Positions 1,241 to 34,186 of a stretch of 40,392 nt of DNA are shown one piece after another. Source of the DNA: an uncultured Aureispira sp. (GTDB lineage: Bacteria > Bacteroidota > Bacteroidia > Chitinophagales > Saprospiraceae); assembly GCA_937942475.1 (NCBI GenBank), contig CALDEP010000158.1, positions 1 to 40,392 on the forward strand, read 5' to 3'. A program made the position numbers and the translations under genes. Each line of letters begins with the position of its first letter. Position 1 is the first letter of the stretch. The notes under the pieces were generated by a model. The model made no database searches and was not told where the DNA came from. It saw only the letters and a list, made by a program, of their open reading frames with translations.

Positions 1241-2475
1241 CTCCTCCTTCTCCAAATGACAACAACAAACAAACCAAGAATAACAACATAACCAATGCCC
1301 AACAAGGTCAGTAAATAAGACTTATTCCGTTGCATGACCACATAATCAGCAATGCCAGCTTTCCAAAAAAGCCATTCATCTGCAATAGAAGACGCTATGT
1401 TGTAATTGCCTGTTTCTAGAATGATGATGCCATCTTTAGAGTTTAAATCAATTCTTGCGGCTGTATTAATTGCATTATTACCACTACCATCATGTCCTAT
1501 AATGTTAGAATTTGGATCGTTTTGACTATAAATATGTGGTCCCAAACCATAAATGCCCATCCCATTTATAAAGGTTTCAGGCGTGCTCATTTTTGTGATA
1601 GATTCTCTGGAAAGCACCTTGTTGTTGGACACATTGGCGTTTAAAAACTTTGACAAATCGGCTGTACAAGTAAATAAGGAAGCAGCCGCCAATGCGGTAA
1701 ATGTATTAAAGGGTCTTTTAGTTTTATCCTCTTTATAGACATCTACTAAGCTTAAATTGGGTTTCTCAGAAAGAACAAAAGTAGAATTTTCCATTCCCAA
1801 AGGCTCAAAAATCGCTTGGGTCATGTAATCTTGAAAGGATTGACCTGTAACTTCTTCAATTATTAATTGCAAAATGGTATAAGCAGCGCCCGAATACATA
1901 TATTGGCTGCCAGGTTCGTAACCAACAATTGCAATACCATCCGAGTAAGGCGCATCAGCTGCTTTGATTAAAGATTCTTCAATCGTTTGTACGGTATCAT
2001 TAGCAGTAAAACCCTCATAACCAAGATCGTCCACCAAGCCAGAGGAATGAGAAAGCAATCTTCGAATCGTAACCATTTGATTGTCAAATTCACTTTTGGG
2101 AAGTTGCCATCTTGTAAGATAGGTGTCAATTGGGAGATCTAAATCTAATATACCTTGCTCTACTAATTTTAAAACGCCAAAAGAAGTTATCCATTTGCTG
2201 ATGGAAGCAACAGGGAAGAGGCTTTGTGCATTTACAGGCTTATCTATGGAGTAAAAGAAATCTTTTGAAACGTTTCCATCCTCGATTAAGGTCATGGCAA
2301 AATTTCCAACAGATTCTTGCTCTATTTTTTCTTTAGCAGCCTCAATAAATGCCTCCGAAGTATTTTCAGAAGTAATCGGTTTTAATAAAAAACCATCAAT
2401 AAAACCATAGCCAATAAAAGCAGTCCAACTTAAAAGGGCAAAACTGAGGAGAGCAATATATTTTAATTTTTTCAT
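1228..2475 (-). CDS. Beta-lactamase-family serine hydrolase (PBP/esterase-like), N-terminal signal/anchor and C-terminal TM segment
   Basis: 415-aa ORF with an S-x-x-K motif (ASISKWIT), a Y-S-G motif (YMYSGAAY) and a HDGSG element, typical of the class C beta-lactamase/PBP fold. The N-term is hydrophobic (MKKLKYIALLSFALLSW). The C-terminus has a hydrophobic stretch (LLTLLGIGYVVILGLFVVVIW) followed by RRRR. Confidence 0.75.
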   Translation of the reverse strand: MKKLKYIALLSFALLSWTAFIGYGFIDGFLLKPITSENTSEAFIEAAKEKIEQESVGNFAMTLIEDGNVSKDFFYSIDKPVNAQSLFPVASISKWITSFGVLKLVEQGILDLDLPIDTYLTRWQLPKSEFDNQMVTIRRLLSHSSGLVDDLGYEGFTANDTVQTIEESLIKAADAPYSDGIAIVGYEPGSQYMYSGAAYTILQLIIEEVTGQSFQDYMTQAIFEPLGMENSTFVLSEKPNLSLVDVYKEDKTKRPFNTFTALAAASLFTCTADLSKFLNANVSNNKVLSRESITKMSTPETFINGMGIYGLGPHIYSQNDPNSNIIGHDGSGNNAINTAARIDLNSKDGIIILETGNYNIASSIADEWLFWKAGIADYVVMQRNKSYLLTLLGIGYVVILGLFVVVIWRRRRNTY

Positions 2476-2536: not shown

Positions 2537-3268
2537 TTATACATTGACAGCACCCAAAACACTTTCAAAATAAGCATTCACCTTATCCACAAAACTATTA
2601 TCAATCACAGAAACCTGAATCAAATATTCAGCACTTGATTTCTTTTCAATATTAATCGTTTGATTAGCAGAGATGTAAGGACAGTTTAAAGCCAAGTGAT
2701 ACAAGTCTTCAGAACGTTGATCTGCGGCTACTTGAACCTTAAAAGAATGTGTTTGAACGTTATTTTTTTTGTACAATTGTTTTAAAACAGCCGTTCTGAT
2801 TTTTGCATTAGGAATGACGACCAATTCCCCTTTTTCGTTTACTAATTTGGTCTGTGATAAGTTAATGGCAGACAATTGACCTTGTGCAAAATCGGCAGAA
2901 ATAATGTCACCTGCTCGAAATTGATTGCTAAACTTAATCAAAATTCCAGCAAAGACATTTCGCCAATAATTGAAACCAATTCCAAACACGAGAACAGATA
3001 AAATGACAGTCACAATAAGATTAGCTTGTAACATTTTGATATAAAACAGCGCCACAAACAAAACCCAAATAATGATTTGAATGCGCTGCCACCACTTTAG
3101 AGTCGTTGCTTGACGCTCCTTAATAAAAGGAATAATGTAGTTGTTAATAATATTAAACACTACAGCGATGATAAGACCTGCCACCAAGAAGGTTAAAATA
3201 TCTGAAACAGGTATGTTTTCTAGAGAGCGCATATTTTTTAGTTTAAGATTTTTAATTCTGTGAGCCAA
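2537..3268 (-). CDS. Small-conductance mechanosensitive channel (MscS family)
   Basis: 243 aa with N-terminal TM helices followed by the MscS pore/beta-domain signature (FRAGDIISADFAQGQLSAINLSQTKLVNEKGELVVIPNAKI). The start overlaps the stop region of the upstream transporter gene by 31 bp (3238-3268). Confidence 0.75.
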   Translation of the reverse strand: MAHRIKNLKLKNMRSLENIPVSDILTFLVAGLIIAVVFNIINNYIIPFIKERQATTLKWWQRIQIIIWVLFVALFYIKMLQANLIVTVILSVLVFGIGFNYWRNVFAGILIKFSNQFRAGDIISADFAQGQLSAINLSQTKLVNEKGELVVIPNAKIRTAVLKQLYKKNNVQTHSFKVQVAADQRSEDLYHLALNCPYISANQTINIEKKSSAEYLIQVSVIDNSFVDKVNAYFESVLGAVNV

Positions 3269-6200
3269 TTTTCTACATAATACTTAGCGTGATGATTCAA
3301 AACATAGGTTCCCTGTGACTGTTTGTAAATCAAACCTGCCTTGTCCATTTCTTTAAGCGTTCCAGGAATTCCCATTGGTTTCTTGGAGCCAAATATTTTC
3401 TGAAGATCGCCTTCTTTTAGTCGATTATGAATCAAAATATGATACAAAATAATCTTCCAATTTGGATCTTTAATATTAGGAAAACTCAAAGAAGTAGGTT
3501 TTTGAATGATCAATTTATCTTCCTCGTTTTTTTGGATGTTATACACCCAAGCATTTAAAGCAACTCCAATCGTTCCTTTGGTTTTTAGATGAATGTCATT
3601 CAACAGCACATCTACTTTTTTGTTACTATCTACCAAATTATCTTTGAACCAAAGTGCTGCACCAGCCGTTTTATGACGATTTAAAATGATGTCTTTCAAT
3701 TCACTTTTACTAGCAGGAGACATGATAATAGTCGATAATAAATTCTTTTCTAAATTGGAGGTTTTGCGGATGATATGAAAGCTTTGCAAGCTACAATTCA
3801 ATAAGAAATAATGTCGATTGCCAAAGTTTTCAATGATCTTCGACAAGTAATTAATTGCTTGACTACCATCTGGACTTTTTACCCACCATTCTTCAATATC
3901 GTTAAAAATCAAGACTGTTTTTTGATCGAGTTGATTAAGAATAGATTCCGTCGTTCCAGCTTTGCTAAAGGTTTTTTGAAAGGCTTTGTGCAAATCGGTG
4001 GCATCAAACTTTTGCTTAGAAGGCGGATTAATGTAGTATTTTTCCTTTTTTATTAAGGTCTTGGCAACCGTTTCTGTAAAGAAGGTTTTTCCAGATAAAG
4101 AAGCACCAATAACAATAATGGCTCCACTAGTGCCTTGATCCATTCGTTGAATGGCGTTTTGAGCAATGCTCAATTCCTTGGCTCTACTACTCGAATTCAC
4201 ATTGTTCAAGTGACTGCCTGTAAAGAGTTTTTTATAATAAAAGGGCAATTCCTGTTCTGCGGAAGCTTGGATGCTCAAAGCAGCCATAAAGTTACTCGTT
4301 TGCTCGATGTTATTAAGATATTGATAATGCTTGCTGTCAAATTTCAGGGTATTAATATCTCGTTTGCGTTGGGCAACAAAATCAAGCCCATTGTGGTAAA
4401 TTGTTGCCGTGCTTTTTTTCTTTTGATTAAACCAATCTTGAAATCTATTGGTGATAATTGGTTTTTGAGAAGCACCCGAATAAGAGTCAATCGACTCAAT
4501 AATCGTACGGATATTTAAGTCTACACTAGTGTTGTGCAAATTGGTATTGACAGAGTGGTTGAAGGTTGCAGCACTGTTCTCTAATTTACTGTTGGCTTGT
4601 TCAATGCGCTGTTGAACTTCTTCTACAATGCTTTCATAATAACTGTGGTCCTTATTATGAACAGATTCATCAATAATGTGCTTAATTAAGTTGGCAAGGT
4701 TGTAAATCTCTTCCGAATTACCATTATAAACAACCGCCAAATTGTGCATACTTTTATGCAAAGGAGAGAGGTAGGAAGATTGAATGATGTAATCTTCTAT
4801 GTTCGCCAAATTAATAGACAAACTCTCCACATCTTCTGCCTGCGATTTGAATAAGACATTAAACGATTCTGCACTCATCAAATCGGTGACTTTAGAAGCC
4901 GAACGAGAAATAGATAAAATATTATCCTCGTCATTTTCCAAAATGCTAGTAAAGTTAACATGTGCAATACTTTCCGCCAGTAAATCCAATTCTTTATCAT
5001 TAAAAGCAACTTTACTTTTGGTGGATAAATGCTCGGTAGCATGATTGACGGCTGTTAATAGCGCGGCAATTCGATCTTCTTGAGGAGCAATGACCTGCTC
5101 TTGCACATAGGTTTTTATTTTTTCATTGATATTAAAAACAGAAAGCCCTGCAATGGATAAATTCAATTCAGATTCTACTTGCTTGTGTCCCAACACTTGA
5201 TTGCGTTCCCAGTCGGAAGCAAAACCATAGAGATTGGATTCTGTCAATAAAATATCTTTTTTCTTTGCTTTTTTAATGTTTTTAAGCAAATCTGGATTTT
5301 CCAAATCCTTGATTAGAGCAATACAAGCATCACGCTCATAGACTTTTAATTCATGGACAATTTGATGTTCCAAACCAGAATAAATTTCCTTGGCATGAAG
5401 GATAAATTGTGTAATGTTATTATTGAACTCTTCTAGCGCATTTTCCTTGCTTTTTGGAGTGGCGACAATGTTTTCAATGACCAATTGAGATTGACTGGCA
5501 ATTTTTTCTGCCAATTGATTGATTGAAATGAAGTTTTGAACCCCAAATTCATAGAGTGTGTGCTGTATGTTTGGTAATATTTTGCCATCAAAATAATGCT
5601 CCAAAGCTTCTTTCCAATAGAGCCAGTGCCCGCCATTTTGAGCAGATTTTACCTTTTTAGGAGCTTTGGCAACAAATACTTTGCGCTCATTAATAAACTG
5701 ATGCACGCCTTTTTCCAAAATTTCTTCTAAAGAATGTAATTTATCATTCCTGAAATTCTCTGAAAGTGCCGTGAGTTCACCTAAAAAATTTTGTAGTTCG
5801 GCAATAAAGGTATGTGCTGATTGATGTTGCTTTAATTCTAACAATGTTTTGTCAAACACTTTGTCAATGCTATCAATATATTGATAATAAAAAGAAGCAA
5901 TCGTAGATAAACTAGGCTCCGTAAGTTGATTGGCACTGCTGTCCCAATGTTTGTCTAAATCGGACACCAAATCATTGATCGCAGCATCCGCAGAAATAGG
6001 CAAGGGGTTGAGTGCTGTAGATTGCTTGGCGATCACTCGCTTTTCTTGTGAAAAGTCTAGATCCAACTCATTAAAATCATCAGAAGCTTTGACTAAAAGT
6101 GTTGTGCCAATGGTTTCAAATAATTCATTGGTTTTTAGAACAAATGCCGCTTGTTTGTCTACAGGAATGTTTGGAATTCCTAGAACAATTAAATCAGTAT

Positions 6201-8226
6201 TGGCAGATTGCAATTCAATAATGTCGTAAAACGGTTTTTGCTCCACGCCATTGTTGATAATCTTAATTTCTGCGTCAATTCGAAGTTTGCTGATTAGTTT
6301 GGCAATTTTAGATTTAATGACCGCATTATCAACATTATTATAATTCACAAACAAGACCCGAATCTTAGCACTCGACCACTTAGACGATTGCACAATGAAA
6401 CGAGCGATGTTCAACATCATTTCCGCATTATTATTATCGGTATCTCGCCACCATAAATCAATCGTTTTGTATTCACCAAAATCATAACGCTTGTCATAAT
6501 CCAAATAGAGTAAATTATAATCCAAATGAATTAATTTCTCGGTCATTTGAGCATAATCGACTTGATCCTTGATGTTTTTGGGCCAAGTCATCATAATGGT
6601 ATTGGGCTCAATACCCGAAAAACCAAAGGTGGCAGCAATATTTTCGATCCCTTTATAGATATTATCAACTTCAATTCTTCGACCAAAAATACCTAAATTT
6701 TCAAGCGTTTCATCTTTTACATTTTGTTTGGTTTTGGCTAAAGGAGCGTTGCCATCAACATTGGTAATTAGGTTAAAATTAGTCACCATCCCCGTTCTTC
6801 CAGAGACAATTTTACTGAAGGTCAGTAATTGAGGGCGTTCTTCTTCTTGCTCGCTGCTGAATAGAATCACATTAGGATTCCAATTGTTGTTGGCAGTTTC
6901 AGTTTGTTCTAAACGTTTGAGTCCTTTGGCAACGATATTTTCCCAAACACTCCGCCAAACATCGCCAGAATCTAGCATAATTTGCTTGCGTTGCAACCAA
7001 AAATAAATGCCCATTATGATAAAAATAGAGGCAAACATGGCAATCATATCCAATTTGAACATGATTCCAAAACAAGCAATAAAACCAACTAAACCAAACC
7101 ACCTATTGACTTTAAAGGTCGGTTGGAAATCAGGATTTGCCCAACTTTCTAAGAAGAAAGACAGGTTAATAAAGCCATAAGCCGCTAAATAAAACATGGA
7201 AACAACTCCTGCAATAACATCTAATTCTCCAATCAAAATACCCATTTGAGCAATGAGAAAGACTAAGAAAAGTGCATTGACGGGTTCATTATTTTTACCT
7301 TTTCCTTTTCCAAAAATCTTTGGCGTTACTTTGTCAATAGACATTGCTTGCAAAATTCTTGGACCACCTAAAATTCCTCCCAAAGCAGAAGAAAGTGTTG
7401 CTCCCCAAACTCCTGCAACAACGGCTGGAGCATAAAAGGATATTTTCATTAAAATATTATAATCAGAACGCAATAGATCGGTGTTAACAGAATAGCTAAT
7501 AAAAACAGCCAAAGCCATATAAACGATAAAACCAACGGCAATAGCTGCAATCGTTCCTACGGGAATATCTTTTTTAGGATCTTGCAAATCGCCACTCATG
7601 GCAATCCCTGCGGTAAAACCAGTCACAGCAGGAAAAAATACAGCAAAAACAGTCGCCAAAGGAACCGACCCTTCCGTTGAAAATAGGGCAGGGGTGGCGG
7701 CAGGGGCAAACTCATTGGTTCCCCAGAAAATAGAGAATAAGGATAAAATAATAGCTGCCAAGATAAAGAACTGTGTCTTTAAGGCAACAGAAGTACTAAT
7801 TAAGGCAATTGCTGTCAACAAAAATAAGGCAACAGAGCCCGAAATTCTCAAACCATTAATATCGGTACTCAAACCAAAATAGCCGTTGAAACTTTCGGCA
7901 AAACCAATCAAATAAAGGGCAATAGAAAGGGCTGTCCCCACATAAAGCGCAATTCCAATCGCACCTCCAATAGGAATTCCCATACTTCTAGATAAGATAT
8001 AGTAAATTCCACCAGCACCTACTTTTTTATCAGTAGCAATAGAAGAAACACTCAATCCAGTTGAAATGGAAATAATATGTGCCAGGAAGACAATTAACAT
8101 CGTTCCAATTAGCCCTGCATTTCCAACAACCCAACCCATTCTCATGTACATGATAACACCTAGAATGGTTAATACAGAAGGTGTAAATACACCCGCAAAT
8201 GCTCCAAATTTTTTTTGTCTTGCCAC
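3238..8226 (-). CDS. SLC12-like cation-chloride cotransporter (12-TM APC fold plus USP-like C-terminal domain) fused to a ~900-aa cytoplasmic extension ending in a P-loop/AAA+-like NTPase domain
   Basis: 1662-aa ORF. Residues ~1-480 form a polytopic APC/SLC12 permease (MARQKKFGAFAGVFTPSVLTILGVIMYMRMGWVVG... with multiple hydrophobic helices). Residues ~480-740 resemble the SLC12 cytoplasmic C-terminal domain (RVLFVNYNN..., DLIVLGIPNIP). A long helical linker follows. The final ~290 aa carry Walker A GASLSGKT (nt ~4084-4110 on the reverse strand), Walker B-like VLIFNDIEEW, and a sensor-like FLLNCS. Confidence 0.7.
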   Translation of the reverse strand: MARQKKFGAFAGVFTPSVLTILGVIMYMRMGWVVGNAGLIGTMLIVFLAHIISISTGLSVSSIATDKKVGAGGIYYILSRSMGIPIGGAIGIALYVGTALSIALYLIGFAESFNGYFGLSTDINGLRISGSVALFLLTAIALISTSVALKTQFFILAAIILSLFSIFWGTNEFAPAATPALFSTEGSVPLATVFAVFFPAVTGFTAGIAMSGDLQDPKKDIPVGTIAAIAVGFIVYMALAVFISYSVNTDLLRSDYNILMKISFYAPAVVAGVWGATLSSALGGILGGPRILQAMSIDKVTPKIFGKGKGKNNEPVNALFLVFLIAQMGILIGELDVIAGVVSMFYLAAYGFINLSFFLESWANPDFQPTFKVNRWFGLVGFIACFGIMFKLDMIAMFASIFIIMGIYFWLQRKQIMLDSGDVWRSVWENIVAKGLKRLEQTETANNNWNPNVILFSSEQEEERPQLLTFSKIVSGRTGMVTNFNLITNVDGNAPLAKTKQNVKDETLENLGIFGRRIEVDNIYKGIENIAATFGFSGIEPNTIMMTWPKNIKDQVDYAQMTEKLIHLDYNLLYLDYDKRYDFGEYKTIDLWWRDTDNNNAEMMLNIARFIVQSSKWSSAKIRVLFVNYNNVDNAVIKSKIAKLISKLRIDAEIKIINNGVEQKPFYDIIELQSANTDLIVLGIPNIPVDKQAAFVLKTNELFETIGTTLLVKASDDFNELDLDFSQEKRVIAKQSTALNPLPISADAAINDLVSDLDKHWDSSANQLTEPSLSTIASFYYQYIDSIDKVFDKTLLELKQHQSAHTFIAELQNFLGELTALSENFRNDKLHSLEEILEKGVHQFINERKVFVAKAPKKVKSAQNGGHWLYWKEALEHYFDGKILPNIQHTLYEFGVQNFISINQLAEKIASQSQLVIENIVATPKSKENALEEFNNNITQFILHAKEIYSGLEHQIVHELKVYERDACIALIKDLENPDLLKNIKKAKKKDILLTESNLYGFASDWERNQVLGHKQVESELNLSIAGLSVFNINEKIKTYVQEQVIAPQEDRIAALLTAVNHATEHLSTKSKVAFNDKELDLLAESIAHVNFTSILENDEDNILSISRSASKVTDLMSAESFNVLFKSQAEDVESLSINLANIEDYIIQSSYLSPLHKSMHNLAVVYNGNSEEIYNLANLIKHIIDESVHNKDHSYYESIVEEVQQRIEQANSKLENSAATFNHSVNTNLHNTSVDLNIRTIIESIDSYSGASQKPIITNRFQDWFNQKKKSTATIYHNGLDFVAQRKRDINTLKFDSKHYQYLNNIEQTSNFMAALSIQASAEQELPFYYKKLFTGSHLNNVNSSSRAKELSIAQNAIQRMDQGTSGAIIVIGASLSGKTFFTETVAKTLIKKEKYYINPPSKQKFDATDLHKAFQKTFSKAGTTESILNQLDQKTVLIFNDIEEWWVKSPDGSQAINYLSKIIENFGNRHYFLLNCSLQSFHIIRKTSNLEKNLLSTIIMSPASKSELKDIILNRHKTAGAALWFKDNLVDSNKKVDVLLNDIHLKTKGTIGVALNAWVYNIQKNEEDKLIIQKPTSLSFPNIKDPNWKIILYHILIHNRLKEGDLQKIFGSKKPMGIPGTLKEMDKAGLIYKQSQGTYVLNHHAKYYVENWLTELKILN

Positions 8227-8391: not shown

Positions 8392-9915
8392 CTAAAAGGC
8401 CAAACGGCTGAGATTTGTTGTCAACCAATCTCTATTGGCAACCGAACTACAAACTTCGATTTCTTGTTCTAATTTTTCAACAGCTTCTTGTATGATGTGC
8501 CGTTTGGTGTAGCCAATTTCTTCTTTGATTTTGAATAGTTTTTTGCTGAATTTCATTAGGTTAGCCGTAGATTTTTTTTGATAATCGGCAACCTGCTTGC
8601 TTCTTCTCAGATAGCTTTGACAAGCATCAATCAAAGCATAAAAAGCTTCGCCTTCTTCTCTTTCGTAATAAATTTTGAGTTGTATAATTTTGGTTCCCAA
8701 ATAATAGGTTGGATTAATAAAATCGACATTGTGTAAGGTTTCCAAGGCTTTGTTGTGGTCGCCTTGGCTATGTTGCAAGGAAGCTAGATTGTATTTGTAA
8801 ATATTGTTTTGGACATCTACAGGCAGTTTTGCTTTGTATTCTTCTATAAATTGTTCTGCCCAAGTATACTTTTTTAGTCGAACCGCCAAGGTGACAATAT
8901 TCTTATACTCTTGAGGCATTAGAAATCCACCAACAAAAATAGCTTCCGATTCGACCAAATAAAGATAAATTTCTAAGGTCTCCTCTAGATAAGTAGAGCC
9001 TTGCTGATTGATTTTTACAATCGCATAATTCAACGCATAACCATAGGTTCCTAAAATTTCCTCTTTTGTAAACTGACTTGCATATTTTTTGAGCAATTCA
9101 AGCAACATTCTATACTGTTTTTCAGTCGTTTCAGGTGCTTCTGTTAACATTCTGAAAATGGTATGATAGATCTGAATAATGGAATCAAATTCTTTGGATT
9201 CATCTTGCAGATGTTCCTCAATGCCCTTCATGATTGACCATTGATAATGCGCTTGAATAACCTTGTTTCGACTGGCCATATCGCAAGCCATTTTTAACTT
9301 TTCTAAGATAAAAAGATTGTCTAAAGAGTCATTCGCTAATTGTAAGTTTTCATTATAACTCCGACCACCTTGCTCTACAAATAAATAATCCAATTCTTTG
9401 TAGAACTTATATTGACTTTCATAATAACTATGATGGTTCAGATGTTCTTTGGCTAATTTTAATTTGTATTTTTTTTCTGTAGAACGATAATGTTTTTCCA
9501 GTTTATATTGGCGCAATTCTTCCAATAAGATCACCATGCGTTTGTTTTCTTTCAGTTGCAATGCGTCGTCTATTAGAAAGTTGTGGAGCAATAGGAGCAA
9601 TTGAGAGGTCAGTCGATGAAATTTTTTATTATCAAAATCCTCCTTCGGAAAAATACGCTTGTAAATACGATCCTTAGATAATTTTTCTGGCTGAGTAAAA
9701 TCAGGGGCATGTTTTAGTAGGTACAAACAAAGTTTGGTCGTTGCTTCATGTTTGTTAAAATAGGGAGAAAGCGTATACTCTTTAAATCGAGTCAGCATTC
9801 TACTATCTAATTCTTTGAGCAATTCTATGATTTTGGAATCTTGCATAAGATAAAGGGGCAATGCTTTGTGTGAAGAAAGCGTAGGGTAAATGTTGTGTTC
9901 TACGAAAATTAGCAA
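8392..9915 (-). CDS. Hypothetical all-helical protein (507 aa), possibly TPR-like; no signal peptide
   Basis: Long ORF with no recognisable catalytic motifs. The composition is K/E/L/Y-rich and helical. It stands alone between divergent or long intergenic regions. Confidence 0.5.
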   Translation of the reverse strand: MLIFVEHNIYPTLSSHKALPLYLMQDSKIIELLKELDSRMLTRFKEYTLSPYFNKHEATTKLCLYLLKHAPDFTQPEKLSKDRIYKRIFPKEDFDNKKFHRLTSQLLLLLHNFLIDDALQLKENKRMVILLEELRQYKLEKHYRSTEKKYKLKLAKEHLNHHSYYESQYKFYKELDYLFVEQGGRSYNENLQLANDSLDNLFILEKLKMACDMASRNKVIQAHYQWSIMKGIEEHLQDESKEFDSIIQIYHTIFRMLTEAPETTEKQYRMLLELLKKYASQFTKEEILGTYGYALNYAIVKINQQGSTYLEETLEIYLYLVESEAIFVGGFLMPQEYKNIVTLAVRLKKYTWAEQFIEEYKAKLPVDVQNNIYKYNLASLQHSQGDHNKALETLHNVDFINPTYYLGTKIIQLKIYYEREEGEAFYALIDACQSYLRRSKQVADYQKKSTANLMKFSKKLFKIKEEIGYTKRHIIQEAVEKLEQEIEVCSSVANRDWLTTNLSRLAF

Positions 9916-10194: not shown

Positions 10195-10576
10195 TATGAA
10201 AAATAGGGTTCAGTAACAAGTTTTGTGGTCATAAAAAAAGGAGGCACCTTTATTCATAGCCTTCAAAAGGATTCTAAATATTAAACGCTCACAAAACTTA
10301 CGATTGAGCTAAAAATATTACATTACTCCGTTGAAAAATCATATTAGTTTGATTATCAGTAGGATGAGATTTTGTTGATTAAATTAAGTACATGGATTTA
10401 ATCGTTTTTTTGCAAATTAGACAGTGTTTTTTCTAGTTTTTTTTATTTTTAATAAAAACTGTACAAATTAATAAAGCATAAAGGTTACTTTAATATTTTC
10501 AAAACCATAAAACAAAAAACAGTACTGTTTTTTGGATATTGTAAAGCTTGAAAGAGCTAAAATCAAAATCAAAAGA

Positions 10577-12439
10577 ATGAAGCACATATACCTTATATTT
10601 TTATTACTCAATATCATTTCAATAAGCCAACTTAGAGCACAATGTGCCGTAGACATTATTCCGCCTGTAGCCATTTGCCAAACTTCTCTAACCGTTTATT
10701 TAGATACATTTGGAATGGTAGAAGTTCAAGCAACAGAGATTGATAATGGTAGTTATGATAATTGTGGCATAGAAGCCTATACCATTAATGGAACAGCCTC
10801 TATTAATTTAAATTGCTTGAATATAGGTATTCCTGTAGCGGCGGAATTAGTCGTGACAGATACAACTGGAAATTCTGATACCTGTAATATGTTTATTACA
10901 GTAGTAGACAATATACCACCAAACCCAATTTGTGCAGCAGCAGGAACTATTTCCGTCTCTTTAGATGCTTTGGGAACGGCAACGTTTCCAGTGGCTCAAG
11001 TACTAATCGGTAGTTCAGATAATTGCTCTATTGCTGCTACGTTTATTAATAACGAAGTAGCACCCATATTATTGACCTGTGAGGATGTTGGAGTATATCC
11101 TTATGTTGTTAAGATGAAAGATCCTAGTAATAATACGGCCTGGTGTCAATCTCAAATTGAAGTGACTTGGGGAGCCGCTTGTGGTTTTGCAGGGCAATTG
11201 GATTCATTAGGAAGGACGGCATGTGATACTGGCATCTGTACGGGTTATGCCGCATTGTCTAGTAATGGCGCTACTGGGGCGGTAAGTTATCTTTGGGAAG
11301 ATGGTTCTACAGCAATTGTACGTAATAATCTATGTGCAGGTAAGTATATTGTTGTCGCAACAGATGCCGTCGGAACGACGGATACTTTAGTCTTTAGAGT
11401 TCGTTTTGAGGAGGATTGTGTTTGGCCTGGCGATACAGATAATGATACAAAAGTTAATAATTTTGATTTATTACCAATTGCCTTAGCTTACGGAACCTCA
11501 GGGGCTGCACGAGTATCGGCTAGTAATAGTTGGGCTGGTCAAAGTAGTAACAACTGGAATATTCCATTAGCCTTGACAGCTTTACCCAATTATAAACACA
11601 TAGACTGTAATGGAGATGCCTTGATTGATTCTTCTGATGTGCAGGCTATTTTGTTAAATTATGCGGAAGACTACTGGAGAAGTTCAGGAACGACGACAAC
11701 TAATTCAAGCAGTCATAGCCAAGATCCACCTCTTTATGTCGATTGTGATACCGTTAGAGAAGGTGACTTGCATTGTATGGGCGTTAATTTAGGAGATGCA
11801 GGAGCGGAAGCAGTGGATGCTTATGCAATTGCGTTTACAATTAATTACGATCCCTTATTGGTGAATTCTGCTAGCATTGTTTATGGTACTTCTTGGTTGG
11901 GGACTGCTCAAGAGTTGATCTCTGTCGAAAAAGATTATTCAGCACAAGGAAGGATCGAAACAGCAGTCGGACGAACCGATCAACAGCCTATAACGGGAAA
12001 TGGAAGAATTGGAACCGTTTGTTTTACCATTCGAGATGATATATTGAGAGCAACACAACCCGACACCGTAGTGATGCCTATTGGAATTAGTGGGGTGCGT
12101 TTTGTAGATGAAAAAGGCAATGAAATGCCAACAGATATAAGAGATGGTTGCTTGACAATCATAGAGGTATTGGATGCGGTTAAGGTAATTGATAATAATA
12201 ATAACATTGATTTGTATCCAAATCCAACAACGGGTTGGGTCAAAATTCGTGGCTTAGAGGCTGGGTTACAAAAAATAACAGTCCGTACAATTACAGGGCA
12301 GGTATTATTGTCAAAAATAGTTCAAGGAGAGAGTAATCTTGAATTGAACTTAAGTAAGCTGCCAGAGGCTGTATACCTTGTGTCTATCGAAACTTCAGAT
12401 AAAATAATTAATAAGAAATTATTAATTGTGAGGGGATAA
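10577..12439 (+). CDS. T9SS-secreted surface protein with HYR-like repeats, dockerin-like and cohesin-like modules, and a T9SS C-terminal sorting domain
   Basis: The likely true start is Met16 of the 10532 ORF (MKHIYLIFLLLNIISISQLRAQ signal peptide). There are two HYR-type repeats (DIIPPVAICQ..., DNIPPNPICAA...). Dockerin-like segments are DTDNDTKVNNFDLL and DCNGDALIDSSDV. A cohesin-like block is DAYAIAFTINYDP.... The C-terminus (LYPNPTTGWVKIRGLEAG...VYLVSIETSDKIINKKLLIV) is a classic T9SS CTD. Confidence 0.75.
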   Translation: MKHIYLIFLLLNIISISQLRAQCAVDIIPPVAICQTSLTVYLDTFGMVEVQATEIDNGSYDNCGIEAYTINGTASINLNCLNIGIPVAAELVVTDTTGNSDTCNMFITVVDNIPPNPICAAAGTISVSLDALGTATFPVAQVLIGSSDNCSIAATFINNEVAPILLTCEDVGVYPYVVKMKDPSNNTAWCQSQIEVTWGAACGFAGQLDSLGRTACDTGICTGYAALSSNGATGAVSYLWEDGSTAIVRNNLCAGKYIVVATDAVGTTDTLVFRVRFEEDCVWPGDTDNDTKVNNFDLLPIALAYGTSGAARVSASNSWAGQSSNNWNIPLALTALPNYKHIDCNGDALIDSSDVQAILLNYAEDYWRSSGTTTTNSSSHSQDPPLYVDCDTVREGDLHCMGVNLGDAGAEAVDAYAIAFTINYDPLLVNSASIVYGTSWLGTAQELISVEKDYSAQGRIETAVGRTDQQPITGNGRIGTVCFTIRDDILRATQPDTVVMPIGISGVRFVDEKGNEMPTDIRDGCLTIIEVLDAVKVIDNNNNIDLYPNPTTGWVKIRGLEAGLQKITVRTITGQVLLSKIVQGESNLELNLSKLPEAVYLVSIETSDKIINKKLLIVRG

Positions 12440-12711
12440 TTTGTTTTTTTTCTTTCATAAAGAATTTTTTTTTTGTACATTTCATGAGAATTAGCGCCAA
12501 GGGAAAAGCTTTTGGCGATGAGAGTAGATATGTGAGTTGTTTTTAATGATTATAAAACTGCTTATGAGTGCTTTTGCTTGTTTTGATGCCCATCGAAACG
12601 AGTGAATTTATGCCACGAAAATTGTCGTACATTCATTGAGATTTGTTCTATGTTTGTTGATCCTGATTTCACCGTCTATTCCTGTTAATTTGAACTATAG
12701 TATTTAGGAAT

Positions 12712-12795: not shown

Positions 12796-14769
12796 ATGCG
12801 TTTGCCTTTAATCTTATTTCTTACCTGTATTATAAGCTGTCTTTATGGACAAGGTCCAACTGGCTTTACTTGTACAGCAGAACAAGCTGTTTTTGAAGTA
12901 GATTATCCAATCAAAATAACCTATACCTTATCGTTTGAAGATGAAATGCCTTCTAAAGAAGAAAAGGACCTTTTAGACGATTTGCAGATTCCAGAAGAAA
13001 TTCTTACAAGAAAAATTGGCGAGGAAAGTTCGGAATCATTCAGTTATAAAGATGGAAAGAGTAAAGGAACCGTCATACGGACTTTTTTCATTAAGATTCA
13101 AGATTTAGGCAGTTTTACCATCCCTGCTGTTAGGATAGATTATAAGGACAAAAAACTAAGTACAGAAGCTCTAGCGCTTAATATTGTCGCTAAAAATTCT
13201 AGGTTATCAGATTTGACAAAAGCGGAATTAAACGCAAAGGTCTTTGTTCGGGCAGAATTTGAGAATGGAAAAGAAACTTGTGTGCTCGGAGAACGTATTA
13301 TTATTAATACAGTGATTTATACACAGATAGCAATAGAAGGGACTGTTATTAATGAGTACTTGGGAGGAACTAATCCGTCGGTTTTGTTGGATTATCTTCA
13401 TCAAAGAACAAAGCCCGAAGAAGTAGAATTGGACGGAAAACCTTATTATAAACAAATCCTTCGAAGTTATGCTTATTATCCATTAATCGTAGAAGAAACA
13501 GTGCTTTCTCCAATGGAAATTGTGATTAAAAGAGTTGCCAATACAGCTAAAAGTGCCTTGGATACAACAAATATACTAACAGATACCTTGTATAGCAATT
13601 CATTGTTATTAAAGTCGGCATCCATTGCTGAAAAAGGGGTAAATTATTTGGCAAAGGATGCAACAGGTGTAAATTGGAGTTTGAATGATTCTTTGATTGA
13701 TAAAGGAACCCTTTTCTTAGACGTAGATTTGATAGGAACAGGGGCACCTTTTCTTTATCACCCACCTCCTTTAAACTTAGGAGATCGTGCAAGTGTTGAA
13801 ATTCTATATTTGGGTCAAGCGTACTTAGATATTAGAAAGGTTAAAAGAAGCTTTAGGTATGTGATTCATTGTCATGAAGCAGGAGATTTTAATATTCAAC
13901 TGAATTGGGTCACTTGGAATACCAAAATGAATAAAAAAGAGGTCTTATCAAAATCAATAGAAACGATAAGGATAGATAAAGTGCAAGCTCGAAGAAATAA
14001 ATTAGTGAATATTAATCCAATAGAACAGGTCAAAAAATCAAAGAGAGATGTTGTACTTGTTATAGATTGTTCTGCTTCTATGTTGGCTAAAGATTTTGAT
14101 TCAACGCGAATTCAGGCAGTTAAAGGATTGCTTCGAAATTTAATTCACCAGAAATTGAACGATGAACGCTTTAGTATAGTTCTAGTAGCAGGGGAAAGTT
14201 TTATTCTATGTCCATTAACTTTTAGTTCGTCGAAATTGTTAAATAGTGTAAATCAAATTAAGACAGAATATTTAATGGAGGGGACGGACCTTACTGCTGG
14301 ACTGATGCAAGGGATATTAAGCCTTTCAGAAAGTAAGATAAACCCAAAAGATATTGTTATTTTTACCGATGGTGCCTCTAATTTAAGTTATCTTGATCGT
14401 AAGCTGGTTTTGATGGCTGCACAAGAACAGAAAATTAGATTAAATACGGTTGGAATAGGGATTGATGGCGAGTTTTTAACGCCAGTATATCAAAAGCCAG
14501 ATGGAAGTTTTCGTTATGGAAAACAATTGTTAGAATTAGAAGACGAAGATCTAAAGAAAATAGCTGATCATGGAGGTGGAATTTACACCCGAATTAACAG
14601 ATCAGAACAATTTAAATTAGGTTTAAATTCATTTTTAGGTAAAAGAGACTTATTATTAATAGACAAGGAAGAACTTATAGCACTTAAATTGGTTAAACTA
14701 TTGTTACAAGATGCTAGTTATAGGCATCAGAAGATAAAAAAAGACTACGTAAATATAAAAGATAAATAG
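12796..14769 (+). CDS. Secreted von Willebrand factor type A (VWA) domain protein (BatD/BatB-like architecture)
   Basis: Signal peptide MRLPLILFLTCIISCLYGQ. It has a VWA MIDAS motif DVVLVIDCSASM with downstream VWA elements (GTDLTAGL, VIFTDGASN). Confidence 0.6.
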   Translation: MRLPLILFLTCIISCLYGQGPTGFTCTAEQAVFEVDYPIKITYTLSFEDEMPSKEEKDLLDDLQIPEEILTRKIGEESSESFSYKDGKSKGTVIRTFFIKIQDLGSFTIPAVRIDYKDKKLSTEALALNIVAKNSRLSDLTKAELNAKVFVRAEFENGKETCVLGERIIINTVIYTQIAIEGTVINEYLGGTNPSVLLDYLHQRTKPEEVELDGKPYYKQILRSYAYYPLIVEETVLSPMEIVIKRVANTAKSALDTTNILTDTLYSNSLLLKSASIAEKGVNYLAKDATGVNWSLNDSLIDKGTLFLDVDLIGTGAPFLYHPPPLNLGDRASVEILYLGQAYLDIRKVKRSFRYVIHCHEAGDFNIQLNWVTWNTKMNKKEVLSKSIETIRIDKVQARRNKLVNINPIEQVKKSKRDVVLVIDCSASMLAKDFDSTRIQAVKGLLRNLIHQKLNDERFSIVLVAGESFILCPLTFSSSKLLNSVNQIKTEYLMEGTDLTAGLMQGILSLSESKINPKDIVIFTDGASNLSYLDRKLVLMAAQEQKIRLNTVGIGIDGEFLTPVYQKPDGSFRYGKQLLELEDEDLKKIADHGGGIYTRINRSEQFKLGLNSFLGKRDLLLIDKEELIALKLVKLLLQDASYRHQKIKKDYVNIKDK

Positions 14770-26408: not shown

Positions 26409-27131
26409 ATGATGAATTTTAAAATAATAATTCTAGCCTTCTGTTTTGGATTGACCTGTTTTAGTGCCTGTAAAAAAGATGGCGTAGAACCTACTCAAGC
26501 TCAAACGACGACAACGACTACTAGTGCTACAACAAATACCAATACGAACAATAATGGTCAAGGAACGAATACGAATAATGACCCCAATCAAATTACAAGT
26601 ATTGTCATTACTCCAGATTATGGAAAATTTGTAGCAATAATTAACCATTCAATCACTTATTCAGCAAAGGCTTATAATTATTTGGGCAATGAAATTGCGG
26701 CTACTTTTGCGTGGACTACTGTGGATAATAGCATTGCATCAAGTAATGTATCTGGAACTGTAACAGGACTTGGTTTAGGGCAAACATTTGTACAAGCATC
26801 TGCAAATGGAATTCAATCCAACCGTTTAGAGGTATTTGTAGTGGATGATTGTGTACAAGTCTATCCACCTCCTGTATCTTCTCCTGAGATTCTTGGTTTT
26901 CCTGCTTCTATAAGCTTGAATGTAGGAGATACTTATGAAATGAAGGATTATATAGAGTCCAAACGATGTCTTGTGCCGATGTTTGCGATGAAATGCATTG
27001 CCGATGCATCTGTTGTCAGTTTGTCTACGACAGGGATCAGCACGCTTACAGGATTGGCTCCAGGAAGAACAATTGTGACCTTATCTTTTCAAGATCTTAG
27101 AGCATATATTGTGGTAGAAGTTACTCCTTAG
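26409..27131 (+). CDS. Lipoprotein with Thr/Asn-rich linker and bacterial Ig-like (BIG2-type) domains
   Basis: Lipobox CFSACKKDG. Low-complexity linker TTTTTTSATTNTNTNNNGQGTNTNN. BIG2-like blocks (ITSIVITPDYG..., VSGTVTGLGLGQTFVQASANGIQSNRLEVFVV). Confidence 0.65.
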   Translation: MMNFKIIILAFCFGLTCFSACKKDGVEPTQAQTTTTTTSATTNTNTNNNGQGTNTNNDPNQITSIVITPDYGKFVAIINHSITYSAKAYNYLGNEIAATFAWTTVDNSIASSNVSGTVTGLGLGQTFVQASANGIQSNRLEVFVVDDCVQVYPPPVSSPEILGFPASISLNVGDTYEMKDYIESKRCLVPMFAMKCIADASVVSLSTTGISTLTGLAPGRTIVTLSFQDLRAYIVVEVTP

Positions 27132-30467: not shown

Positions 30468-30605
30468 ATGAAATGGCAGGTCTTATATTTTTGCTTATTT
30501 TTACTATTTATTTCAATATTTAGTGCATGTCGAGCCGATTCGAGTATAAATTTAGTAGGAACTTGGTCGACTTCTGATGGTGGATTAACAATTGCTGCAT
30601 GTTAA
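30468..30605 (+). CDS. Possible very small lipoprotein ORF (dubious)
   Basis: MKWQVLYFCLFLLFISIFSAC lipobox-like signal. The mature part would be only ~25 aa. The ORF is convergent with the protease gene and overlaps its stop. Confidence 0.2.
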   Translation: MKWQVLYFCLFLLFISIFSACRADSSINLVGTWSTSDGGLTIAAC

Positions 30606-33600
30606 GGCTGTTTTACTACTTTGAAAATAGCCGTAGCGTTTTTATTTGTTTTCACAACAATAAAATAAACGCCAGGACTGCCTTCAAAACTTAAATTCAA
30701 ACGTTGTTTTTGATTATGTGTACTTTGATGGACAACTTGTCCCAAAGTATTACTAATAAGAACGCTAGTGTTGGCTTGAACATCTTGTAAATCTACCGTA
30801 AATGTTCCCTTGTTAGGATTTGGATATAATGTAAAGTTATGATCCTTAGATACTTCTGTGAAGTCAATCGTGCTAATGACCTGAGCCTCTAAGTTAATAT
30901 CATCAATTGCTAAATCAGATTGGTAACCCCCTCCTGTAGCGCCTCTAAATGCTAAGACAACTTTTTGATCAACAAAAGCACTTAAATCAACAGAAATAGA
31001 ATCCCATTGGTCGCCTTGATCGCCTTGAACAGAGGGCATCACATCTTGATATAAATTGCCATCTGCAATGACGTCAAGGTGCAAAGATCCAATACCGCCA
31101 CCATAAGCATGATACCAAAAGGATAGATTGGGTTGAGTAACATTTGTAAGGTCTAGACAAGGAGAATGTAAAATAGCTTCTTTGTAAGTACAACCTGAAC
31201 CACCATTACCAGAACCTTCCAAGTATAAATAATTGCCAATACCAGAGGTATGATCGCCACTTGGTCCTGTTCCACCAGTCCCTGTTCCATTCTCATCTGT
31301 ACGCCAGTCAATATCATCGCCTTGTGTGTTGGTGACATTGTACCAACCTTGTGAAAGGTTGCATATTTCGGATTCACATCCCCAAGCAGTACTACACAAA
31401 GTAAAGGAGTCAAAAGAGTTGACTAAAGGCAAGGCAGCAGGTATGCTATTGTAAATAATTAGACTGTCGATAAGACTATCGTTCATCAAGTTTCCATCAG
31501 TAGGATAATGTGTCCAAACCGCTAAGCTATGGCTTCCTATACTTAGATTTAAGGGGGTATTGAAGGTCACTAATGCTTCAACGCCACTGGCTAAGTTGCT
31601 GTAAATGGTATCTAAAACAGGCGTTTGCCCATCTAAACTATAAGCAACAGGAATAAAACTAAGGGTATTGGTGCCCCAATTTCGTACATTTATTTTAATC
31701 GCTAGACTATTGTTATTACTACAAAGAGGAAGGACTGAATTGCCTGGAGTCGCTAAGCTAGTGATTCCAACATCATAAGGCGTACAGTTAATATTGGTTG
31801 GAAAGCGCTCAGTAGCAAGGCTTCGTTTCCCAATACTATTATTTCTAACCGCTGCTACCGCCAAGAATTCAGAAGCCGTCAAGGAGAGGTTATTAAGAAT
31901 AAAGTAATTGGAGGTACTGTAGGCAATAGAATCCATTGTTTGTGCTCCCAATTGATAAATAATGTAGCCATCTGCATCGGGAATGCTATCCCAGTAGATT
32001 AAACTAGAGTCGCTACAAGACCAAACTACGTTTAAGTTTTGAGCTTGTCCTAAGATGGAAAAAGTGGCATCACTAAGTCCGTCAATGCTTCCTCGATTCA
32101 CTCGAATTAAAGCTGTACTAGAAAAGGTATCAGGTACGGTCCAATCGTAAAAACGAGTATTATTAGCTAGATTAGAGGCAATATTAAGCCATGTTGTGCC
32201 ATTGTCTAAGGAATAAGAAAGATCAAAAGTATTCGTCGTGTCGCCTTGGCTGTCCCAACGAATTCGCTCTGTAGCACTAGGTGTGAAATGCTCTCCACCT
32301 AATGGATAGGTGACATACAACTCATCGTAAATAAATTCATAGACAATAAAATATTCTTGTGGCCCTACAGGGACTGAAAAACCAGTTACAGATAAAGTGT
32401 AATTCCCACTAACAGGGTTAAATAAACTAACTTGCTCTACATTGTTTAAACTATCTCTAGTTCTAACTGCTGGAGATTCTAATAACAAAGAATCAGGCGT
32501 GGGATTGAGTACCCAAGGTTGCCATTGTACAGCAGAAGGATCGTGTAGTCGAATGTCTAAATCGTTGACTAAGGCACGGCTTGTAATTCCTGCAACGGCT
32601 TCGTAATCGGTCCAGTAAACCATCACTCGAACTTCTTTTACATTATTAGGAACGCTAATGCTGTGTGTATTGGAATCGCCTTGCATGGCACTAGCCGAAG
32701 AAAACTGATTTTGGTTGATAATATTGTACGCTTTTCGAGCATTTATTTTTCCATAACCTGATTTGAAATCAGGACCAATATTGAGCATGTCGTCCGCAGA
32801 ATTCATCAAAATGGCTTTAATTAAGCCAGATTTAGGTAAGTTGCCTCCATTTTTTACTTTATAAACTTGTGTTAATTGGGCAAATAAACCTGCTAAATTT
32901 GGGGAAGCGTGAGAGGTTCCACCAGGACCAGTAGCGCAAATGTCTGGTAAAATACGACCATCCCAAGCAGGACCACGACTACTAAAACCTGTTAAATTTC
33001 CTGCCGTATTTAAGGCACCAACGGCAAATATATTTTTTGCAGATTTGATCAAACCAGTAATGTTTCCCCAACCTACACCTGCTGCACCATTGCCATAACC
33101 ACAATCACTTCCACCCATGTTTCCACAAGAATAAGTAATCATAAAAGAAGGATTGGTACGAACTAAATTATCATTGTTTGCTGCACCAGAATTATAAGTG
33201 CTTGTTGTTCCACTACCAATACAGCCATAACCAAAAGAATTATTAACAATCGTAATGCCACTAGTAGCAGCATTGCCAAAGTTAATGCCCCCAGAATGCA
33301 AGGTAGCACCAAAAGCAGTTCCTCTAAAATCTGGATTGAGATTACCCGCACTTGCCATGCGTCTACCAACGCCTGTTTTGTGTCCCGAAGCCGTTCCTGT
33401 TTCCAAACTTCTATCCAAGCGGTTTTTAAAATTGGCTTGATGGATAGAATCTACACGTCCACCTTCGTTAACGGCAATGTCAATGCCTGCGCCATTAAAA
33501 AAGAGTCCTTGCCCGATGTTATCAGAAATATAATTACTCTGAATAAGGGTTATTTCTTCCTTAAATTCATCTTCTTGTGGCGGCATTTTAAATTCAATGT

Positions 33601-34186
33601 ATTGAACCAAAGGATGCTTTGCAAACTCAATTAATTCTAACCAACTCGTATTTACTTCCACCCAATTGGATTCAGGTTTGCTATTTTCTACGGCTAATCC
33701 TGCTCGCTCACAAAGGTCTTGATAATCTACAGCAGCCGTTTTTTCCTTCCAAAATAGAATTCTAGCAGATAACAAATCAAGATTCCCTGCATGGCTGGGA
33801 ATATTTGCCGTTTCAAGGGCTAAAGACATTTTCCAAGCCGCTTTAAAGGCACTAAGACCTCTAAGTTTTAGTTGGTTTAAGTTTTCAATTGGAATGTCTT
33901 GGCTTATTTTGGCAATCCAAGCATAGTTAGGAACATAATGCATCAACTCAATGCCTTGTTGTTCCAGTACTGCTTTGTCCGTTCCTGTGGGAATGTCTTC
34001 CAATTGAAGCAAGACATAAACATGTTGCCCAAATTTACTTTGTGGATGCTCTTTTAAGTGTTCCCAACTTTTAGTAATGTCCTTGTCGAAATGAACAGAA
34101 CCATTGGATAGGAGCACTTTGTAATCTTTTTGACCAAACGTTATCAAAGAAACAAATAAGAAAAGAAAAGTGGCTAGATACTTCAT
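30602..34186 (-). CDS. Subtilisin-like (S8) serine protease with MAM-like domain and T9SS C-terminal sorting domain
   Basis: Signal peptide MKYLATFLFLFVSLITFGQ. Ser motif GTSHASPNLAGLFAQL. MAM-like block DHTSGIGNYLYLEGSG...LHSPCLDL...LSFWYHAYGGGIGSLHLDV. C-terminal T9SS CTD FTLYPNPNKGTFTVDL...GVYFIVVKTNKNATAIFKVVKQ. Confidence 0.75.
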   Translation of the reverse strand: MKYLATFLFLFVSLITFGQKDYKVLLSNGSVHFDKDITKSWEHLKEHPQSKFGQHVYVLLQLEDIPTGTDKAVLEQQGIELMHYVPNYAWIAKISQDIPIENLNQLKLRGLSAFKAAWKMSLALETANIPSHAGNLDLLSARILFWKEKTAAVDYQDLCERAGLAVENSKPESNWVEVNTSWLELIEFAKHPLVQYIEFKMPPQEDEFKEEITLIQSNYISDNIGQGLFFNGAGIDIAVNEGGRVDSIHQANFKNRLDRSLETGTASGHKTGVGRRMASAGNLNPDFRGTAFGATLHSGGINFGNAATSGITIVNNSFGYGCIGSGTTSTYNSGAANNDNLVRTNPSFMITYSCGNMGGSDCGYGNGAAGVGWGNITGLIKSAKNIFAVGALNTAGNLTGFSSRGPAWDGRILPDICATGPGGTSHASPNLAGLFAQLTQVYKVKNGGNLPKSGLIKAILMNSADDMLNIGPDFKSGYGKINARKAYNIINQNQFSSASAMQGDSNTHSISVPNNVKEVRVMVYWTDYEAVAGITSRALVNDLDIRLHDPSAVQWQPWVLNPTPDSLLLESPAVRTRDSLNNVEQVSLFNPVSGNYTLSVTGFSVPVGPQEYFIVYEFIYDELYVTYPLGGEHFTPSATERIRWDSQGDTTNTFDLSYSLDNGTTWLNIASNLANNTRFYDWTVPDTFSSTALIRVNRGSIDGLSDATFSILGQAQNLNVVWSCSDSSLIYWDSIPDADGYIIYQLGAQTMDSIAYSTSNYFILNNLSLTASEFLAVAAVRNNSIGKRSLATERFPTNINCTPYDVGITSLATPGNSVLPLCSNNNSLAIKINVRNWGTNTLSFIPVAYSLDGQTPVLDTIYSNLASGVEALVTFNTPLNLSIGSHSLAVWTHYPTDGNLMNDSLIDSLIIYNSIPAALPLVNSFDSFTLCSTAWGCESEICNLSQGWYNVTNTQGDDIDWRTDENGTGTGGTGPSGDHTSGIGNYLYLEGSGNGGSGCTYKEAILHSPCLDLTNVTQPNLSFWYHAYGGGIGSLHLDVIADGNLYQDVMPSVQGDQGDQWDSISVDLSAFVDQKVVLAFRGATGGGYQSDLAIDDINLEAQVISTIDFTEVSKDHNFTLYPNPNKGTFTVDLQDVQANTSVLISNTLGQVVHQSTHNQKQRLNLSFEGSPGVYFIVVKTNKNATAIFKVVKQP

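Follow-up and report, generated by a model that had tools for sequence, protein, structure and literature searches.

A bacterial cation-chloride cotransporter continued by a helical domain and an Orc/Cdc6-like AAA+ ATPase, and encoded next to an MscS-like channel gene

The cation-chloride cotransporters (CCCs) of the SLC12 family are built on a common plan. The eukaryotic members (NKCC1 and KCC1-4) and the prokaryotic CCCs of ~730 residues share with the protein described here a core of 12 transmembrane (TM) segments, a cytoplasmic C-terminal domain and ion sites, and all known CCCs stop after the C-terminal domain. In animals, control is exerted in trans, by WNK-SPAK/OSR1 phosphorylation, and acts on the cytoplasmic domains of the CCCs; to our knowledge, almost nothing is known about the regulation of prokaryotic CCCs. 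For other osmoregulatory transporters of bacteria, it is a cytoplasmic domain, provided in cis or by the same operon, that tunes the transporter, as in the RCK/KTN rings of Ktr/Trk/Kef, the CBS domains of OpuA and the coiled coil of ProP, and some of these regulators bind nucleotide. The C-terminal domain of KCC1 binds ATP/ADP, and the USP-like protein TeaD is a regulatory module of osmolyte transport (PMC8280820). Here we describe a gene on a stretch of 40,392 nucleotides from an uncultured Aureispira sp. (contig CALDEP010000158.1; this whole stretch is hereafter called the window), in which an apparently functional CCC is continued by 920 residues that carry their own AAA+ ATPase domain, and which is followed directly by a gene for an MscS-like channel.

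The fusion gene (Table 1) is real and undivided, and it belongs to a chromosome of Aureispira-like type (Saprospiraceae, Bacteroidota). It lies on the minus strand; the first-pass annotation had given no strand. The window is called Aureispira-like because the extension and the CCC part are 89% and 94% identical, respectively, to an Aureispira locus. Translation from the GTG start gives the N-terminus MARQKKFG, in agreement with MAGKKKFG and MASKNKFG in homologues. Near nucleotide 6000, at the junction between the CCC part and the extension, the reading frame is unbroken, and the alignment with two homologues (P0001 and P0002) is collinear and gap-free. No database annotation of an architecture of CCC, helical domain and AAA+ domain was seen, and full-text searches of the open-access literature found no paper on it. 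Although such an absence is not proof, it agrees with the view of the first-pass annotation, which was made from the sequence alone, that the architecture would be an undescribed one.

The first ~740 residues had been taken for a complete SLC12/CCC protein, and the database matches agree with this. Pfam AA_permease matches residues 13-412 at 2.7e-46, and TIGR00930 (K-Cl cotransporter) matches the whole protein at 7e-116, with residues 260-673 as the best stretch. The top matches in a PDB search are KCC4 (6ukn, 4e-78) and NKCC1 (~1e-74), both over the whole core. The KCC4 alignment extends into the C-terminal domain, reaching residue 658 of the query and 912 of the chain, and the C-terminal domains of K+/Cl- cotransporters (6vw9/6vwa) are matched at 7e-7; the Pfam SLC12 score of this domain is 21 bits, under the 27-bit cut-off. 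The curated NCBIfam cut-off of TIGR00930 is missed (388.5 bits vs 953.4). By these matches, the N-terminal part is a member of the CCC family and not an equivalog of the eukaryote-centred TIGR00930 model. It is without the long regulatory N-terminus of animal CCCs. TM-like segments are confined to residues ~1-410, and none is found in residues 741-1662, where the Kyte-Doolittle maximum is 1.21. Given this lack of membrane-like segments and the topology of CCCs, the extension is soluble and cytoplasmic, which is the location that the first-pass annotation had wished to see confirmed.

With the ion sites defined as in human NKCC1 (PMC9713717), alignments with KCC4 and NKCC1 place T20, I21, G23, V24, I25, Y105, P199, T202, A276, S279 and S280 of the window protein at these sites. 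The K+ site is kept in Y105 of TM3 together with P199 and T202 of TM6, the Cl- site in the G-V-I of TM1 (G23-V24-I25), and the Na+ site in the A-x-x-S-S of TM8 (A276, S279 and S280). All ion-site residues are invariant across 62 fused and 118 unfused homologues. The A-x-x-S-S Na+ site of TM8 is absent from KCCs, and the coupling of the window protein would be NKCC-like, with Na+, K+ and Cl- transported together. Since the NKCC-type sites are invariant in all 180 homologues, the transporter is under selection as a transporter, rather than being a decayed sensor. The N-terminal ~735 residues form a complete and apparently functional CCC.

The region that follows had been called a long helical linker. 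It is helical indeed; it is not a spacer, however, but a conserved domain of ~560 residues with invariant motifs of its own, among them W-x-R-N-Q-x-L-x-H-x-Q at residues 1006-1016. Profile searches of this region against PDB sequences gave nothing significant, and searches against Pfam nothing consistent. The P-F-Y-Y-K-K-L-F motif (Table 1), with the family form P-F-Y-Y-K/Q-x-L-F, is the most conserved element of the whole family (P 96%, Y 88%, Y 97%, L 96% and F 94%; these and the other motif figures were computed over 150 sequences). The AlphaFold2 model of residues 741-1662, built on an alignment of 82 sequences, is confident, with a mean pLDDT (predicted local distance difference test) of 90.6 and a pTM (predicted template modelling score) of 0.77. 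A single-sequence AlphaFold2 model of the ATPase domain (pLDDT 42) was not used.

In this model, the C-terminal part of the extension shows the AAA+ fold, an α-β-α base with a helical lid. Walker A follows β1, the V-L-I-F-N-D-I-E of Walker B (1438-1445) lies on the strand at extension residues 698-701, and extension residues 848-917 have the winged-helix topology H-E-H-H-E-E-H. The closest folds found by Foldseek are Orc/Cdc6, with alignments of ~400 columns that span the full chains of Orc2 and Cdc6. The first-pass annotation had described an extension of ~920 residues ending in a P-loop/AAA+-like NTPase and possibly a winged helix, and both are recovered by the model; the three motifs that it quoted (GASLSGKT, VLIFNDIEEW and FLLNCS) are all present (Table 1). 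As for the NTPase family, about which it had left several choices, an Orc/Cdc6-like fold is found, but AAA_16 of Pfam stays below the gathering cut-off, with 23.9 bits vs 32.6 for the window domain. AAA_16 is matched by each of 17 family members tested, weakly in every case and below the threshold (best 4e-7). The winged-helix region gave weak matches to the winged helices of HxlR, MCM_C and TFIIIC, and a profile search of the ATPase domain against PDB sequences found nothing significant.

The motifs of the ATPase domain are well kept in the family. In Walker A, the first G is conserved in 97%, the S in 75%, the following G in 100%, the K in 88% and the T/S in 97%; Walker B has the pattern hhhh-x-D-h-E-x-W-W (D 85%, E 95%, W 96% and W 95%). 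The R-H pair of the lid, the G-N-x-G-x-A-L-x-x-W segment and the His of the first winged-helix helix are conserved in 83-100%. In the sensor-1 region, position 1479 is Asn in 81% of the family and Ser in the window protein, whose N1477 occupies a position that is Asn in 60%. A layout of nucleotide-binding domain, helical domain and winged helix, like that of STAND proteins, is present, and H1600 of the winged helix is conserved in 95%; in STAND proteins, a conserved His of the winged helix touches the bound ADP. STAND sensor repeats (TPR, WD40 or LRR), which in most STAND members lie C-terminal to the NTPase module, were not found by Pfam, and the protein ends two residues past the winged helix. 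Judged from sequence and model, the C-terminal domain would be an Orc/Cdc6-AAA_16-like switch ATPase, which is placed in no curated family. Some members deviate in detail. In P0001 (Saprospiraceae), Walker B reads ILIFDGLEKWW (residues ~1437-1447), a NACHT-like hhhhDG form, vs VLIFNDIEEWW in the window protein, so the acidic residue is displaced by one position within the family. In a few members Arg or Met replaces the Walker A Lys, and in one stand-alone protein (P0117, 1151 residues) a low-complexity stretch of roughly 90 residues, in which Pro, Ser, Gly and Glu abound, is inserted between the two Walker motifs.

The size of the family became apparent only through an exhaustive HMMER search with the extension alone as query, which gave 665 clusters at 50% identity (421 at E<=1e-10); word-indexed protein searches had found 2 and 7 relatives. 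A scan of species-representative genomes yielded 20 loci, all from metagenome-assembled genomes (MAGs), in Aureispira, Flavobacteriales, Lutibacter, Vicingaceae, Bacteroidales, Lentimicrobiaceae and Ignavibacteria. The identity of the extension, 25-89% from Saprospiraceae to Ignavibacteria, roughly tracks taxonomy, and 13 of these 20 loci hold complete fused open reading frames (ORFs) of 1648-1703 residues. Metagenomes added 80 further loci. Among the 104 non-redundant loci, 50 of the 60 complete ORFs are fused to a CCC; they encode 1648-1782 residues and come from different assemblies and phyla. The same fusion, which the first-pass annotation had proposed to look for in related genomes, is thus found there, and its argument that the continuous frame of 4989 nucleotides speaks against mis-joined genes is upheld by these independent complete ORFs. 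In two MAG loci (L011, at about 12499-12503, and L017, at about 3925-3934) the fused frame is broken within the extension, by an assembly error or in a pseudogene.

The module of helical and AAA+ domains is not specific to CCCs. Stand-alone forms, which are soluble proteins of 903-1018 residues, make up 30 of the 150 best cluster representatives, and in each of four different clusters whose context was inspected, an MscS-like gene lies directly downstream and no CCC gene is nearby. The source database labels the stand-alone protein 'hypothetical protein' and the fusion 'amino acid permease'. Fused and stand-alone forms are intermingled in a neighbour-joining tree built from the ATPase domain. 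This suggests that fusion or fission has happened repeatedly, as is classically seen where functions are coupled. What is constant is that the module has at least one protein of membrane ion flux either attached to it or encoded next to it. Unfused CCC orthologues are far commoner, with 7535 matches at E<=1e-50. They end at 724-760 residues, as the first-pass annotation had expected of a normal protein of this type, and are 68-73% identical to the CCC part of the window protein. In the three unfused CCC loci checked, neither the module nor an MscS-like gene adjoins. A gene for 222-235 residues without a Pfam match lies just upstream of the ~735-residue CCC gene in the unfused loci L109-L112; the products in L110, L111 and L112 form one family (62% identity) and that in L109 is a different protein. 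This small gene was considered as a diverged MscS and rejected, as it is not MscS-like.

The gene downstream of the fusion, which was not mentioned in the first-pass annotation, encodes a protein that matches PF00924 at 3.4e-12 (46.7 bits vs a cut-off of 20.2) and aligns to residues 34-207 of E. coli MscS at 1.6e-9. It has ~3 hydrophobic/TM segments and the MscS β-domain. The pore-lining TM3 and the β-domain are common to this protein and to the MscS family (E. coli MscS, YnaI and MscK/MscM), but the downstream MscS-like proteins are shorter (221-257 residues), with a trimmed N-terminus and a trimmed C-terminal domain. Of the 93 loci that have enough downstream DNA, 87 (94%) show an MscS-like ORF immediately downstream in the same orientation, and in the 24 loci mapped its start codon is found -4 to +42 nucleotides from the stop codon of the fusion or module. 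Other neighbouring genes are not conserved beyond the genus in the locus comparison. Because of the close spacing, co-transcription of the fusion and the MscS-like gene is suggested, and the two are probably coupled in translation. An MscS channel genetically tied to an AAA+ protein was not found reported in the open-access literature. At one locus without an MscS-like gene (L076), a protein with a BLUF blue-light sensor domain (4e-32) is encoded at 5828-6235 on the plus strand, just downstream of the fusion.

Compared with the systems introduced above, the window protein and its partner differ in several respects. The closest analogies in function are the RCK/KTN, CBS and ProP coiled-coil regulators and TeaD, which sense nucleotide or ionic strength, and the ATP-binding C-terminal domain of KCC1; these have neither an AAA+/Orc-like fold nor a 560-residue helical domain, and they are not part of a cassette of an importer and an MscS-type channel. 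The ATPase domain folds like archaeal Orc1/Cdc6 and the AAA_16/STAND ATPases, but it is sub-threshold in Pfam and lacks the sensor-2 Arg, the arginine finger and the STAND repeats. The Orc/Cdc6-like switch fold is otherwise known from replication initiation and innate immunity; whereas Orc1/Cdc6 and STAND proteins serve replication or immune effectors, the present module is attached to, or lies beside, membrane proteins of ion transport, and we know of no earlier link between the AAA+ fold of the extension and ion transport. By sequence and model, the system may be regarded as a nucleotide-binding regulator of ion transport, in cis or operonic, made from an unexpected AAA+ fold and a new helical domain.

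What could be the role of such a module? The first-pass annotation had thought of nucleotide-gated ion transport or of a signalling receptor. We propose a nucleotide-dependent switch or scaffold by which the entry of salt through the CCC and the exit of solutes through the MscS-like channel are regulated or coordinated, and we give this proposal a probability of roughly 0.5. Membrane proteins of ion flux would be the dedicated partners of the module; when fused, it would sit on the cytoplasmic face of the transporter, docked to the MscS-like channel. Exchange between ATP and ADP would change its conformation or oligomeric state, and this state would set or coordinate the uptake of salt through the CCC and the release of solutes through the channel. 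The whole would serve as a unit of cell-volume, turgor or ionic homeostasis, and would thereby provide in cis the control that kinases exert in trans on the animal CCCs. A more far-reaching version, in which the helical and AAA+ protein represents a new class of ATP-dependent ion-flux regulator that physically bridges a Na-K-Cl importer and an MscS-type valve to make one self-contained cell-volume homeostat, and in which the Orc/Cdc6-like switch reads a cytoplasmic cue such as ATP/ADP, ionic strength or crowding and gates uptake and release reciprocally, is tentative and would be put forward by us only as a less likely elaboration.

Several points weigh against the proposed switch or scaffold. 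The mechanism is inferred from gene fusion and gene order. No canonical arginine finger was found in the family alignment, residues 1480-1496 containing no conserved Arg, and the sensor-2 Arg is absent as well, its position being taken by G-N-[IV]-G; the sole near-invariant Arg, R1517, belongs to the first helix of the lid. The lack of both arginines makes ring-type cooperative hydrolysis doubtful, and the ATPase domain may only bind nucleotide. Six of the 93 loci are without an MscS-like neighbour, and at least three of these are CCC fusions. The module must be an accessory, since thousands of CCC orthologues that are ~70% identical work without it. Rfam shows no riboswitch in the window, and no osmotic or cyclic di-AMP riboswitch upstream of the fusion. 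An electrostatic sensor of ionic strength, in which an acidic helical domain would face a basic ATPase, was also considered and rejected, for the net charges are not conserved in the family.

Other roles can be imagined for the same module. It might be a factor for assembly or quality control that inserts, oligomerises or remodels the MscS-like heptamer, the CCC dimer or both, with no regulation of flux. AAA+ proteins often act as assemblers or loaders (Orc/Cdc6, clamp loaders and TnsC), and the close gene spacing is suggestive not only of translational coupling but also of co-assembly. However, the closest folds are of the switch and loader types and not pore-loop unfoldases, ordinary MscS channels and unfused CCCs assemble without such a factor, and in most members the module is permanently fused to the transporter. 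We therefore consider this role improbable, though it is the best placed of the alternatives.

Slightly less probable still is a membrane-tethered transcription regulator, whose winged helix would bind DNA as in Orc1/Cdc6, while the transporter or channel would share in the sensing (a 'trigger transporter'). In favour of it, the folds that come closest belong to DNA-binding initiators in which the winged helix touches DNA, the AAA+/winged-helix region has a net charge of +14 in the window protein and is positive in 75% of the family, and the long helical domain could serve as a reach arm. On the other hand, the stand-alone form is soluble and is tied to the MscS-like gene, not to a regulon, and no conserved adjacent target genes are seen. 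The winged helix of STAND and AAA_16 proteins is part of the nucleotide switch and not a DNA reader, and the near-invariant His of the winged helix fits such a switch role.

That the proteins defend against phage by abortive infection, an Orc/STAND-like ATPase sensing the infection and opening the MscS-like pore and the CCC so that the cell collapses, is unlikely. The STAND-like layout would suit this role, but there is no sensor repeat domain, PADLOC matches none of the three proteins (fusion, MscS-like protein and product of the upstream ORF), and no relatives are found among viral contigs. The CCC part has invariant ion sites and shares ~70% identity with ordinary CCCs; moreover, identity roughly follows taxonomy, and the flanks are housekeeping genes with no defence island. 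Finally, although unfused ~730-residue CCCs and stand-alone ~950-residue helical and AAA+ proteins both exist and two MAG loci have interrupted frames, a mis-joining of CCC and ATPase genes into one ORF by an assembly or frameshift artefact can practically be dismissed in view of the complete fused ORFs that occur independently, 50 times, in different assemblies and phyla, the collinear, gap-free junction and the absence of a CCC upstream in the stand-alone loci.

Table 1. Positions of the fusion gene, its domains and motifs, and the adjacent channel gene in the window
Feature	Residues	Nucleotides	Strand	Remarks
Fusion gene	1-1662	3238..8226	minus	single ORF, 1662 aa; 4989 nt including stop; GTG start, TAA stop
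CCC/SLC12 transmembrane core	1-~420	6967..8226	minus	APC/LeuT fold; 12 TM by homology to solved CCCs
SLC12-type cytoplasmic C-terminal domain	~421-735	6022..6966	minus	aligned to KCC4 residues ~640-912
All-alpha domain	~741-1300	4327..6006	minus	~560 aa; helices of 38-68 residues; matches no known family
P-F-Y-Y-K-K-L-F motif	1328-1335	4222..4245	minus	directly before AAA+ N-terminal helix
AAA+ ATPase base and lid	~1345-1565	3532..4194	minus	
Walker A, GASLSGKT	1374-1381	4084-4107	minus	
Walker B, VLIFNDIEEWW	1438-1448	3883-3915	minus	
Sensor-1 region, FLLNCS	1474-1479			
R-H pair	1517-1518			lid
S-x-G-N-x-G-x-A-L-x-x-W	1549-1560			
C-terminal winged helix	~1586-1660	3247..3471	minus	near-invariant H1600
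MscS-like channel gene		2537..3232	minus	231 aa; ATG 5 nt past fusion stop codon

The neighbours of the fusion in the window are housekeeping genes. Directly upstream and on the same strand lies an ORF of 507 residues (8392-9915, minus strand), for which Pfam and PADLOC give no match; the one locus in which it is conserved is L003, from Aureispira. Further away, on the plus strand, 23741-26245 encodes a bacterial homologue of the protein that forms the shell of eukaryotic vaults: its 834 residues match the shoulder domain of the Major Vault Protein (PF11978) at 9.5e-28 and include a Vault_3 repeat (8.7e-7). On either side lie small ORFs (20968-23380 and 26409-27131) that have no Pfam match. 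A BatD and von Willebrand A protein and a protein sorted by the type IX secretion system (T9SS; Por_Secre_tail) are encoded at 12796-14769 and 10532-12439, both on the plus strand, and further T9SS cargo with subtilase and MAM domains at 30602-34186 on the minus strand; these genes are consistent with a Bacteroidota chromosome. Two window ORFs of 703 residues each were considered as duplicates and found to be unrelated. A scan for sigma-70 promoters and terminators was uninformative, the host genome being that of a member of the Bacteroidota.

It has long been asked how cell volume and chloride are sensed by CCCs. Animals use kinase cascades for this purpose, and here the regulator is apparently fused to the transporter itself. 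The two proteins offer a compact and testable bacterial model for the coupling of salt uptake and release. The work also adds a new helical domain of 560 residues with a confidently predicted structure and defines a sizeable unannotated protein family, which may be relevant to how marine Bacteroidota adapt to salinity.

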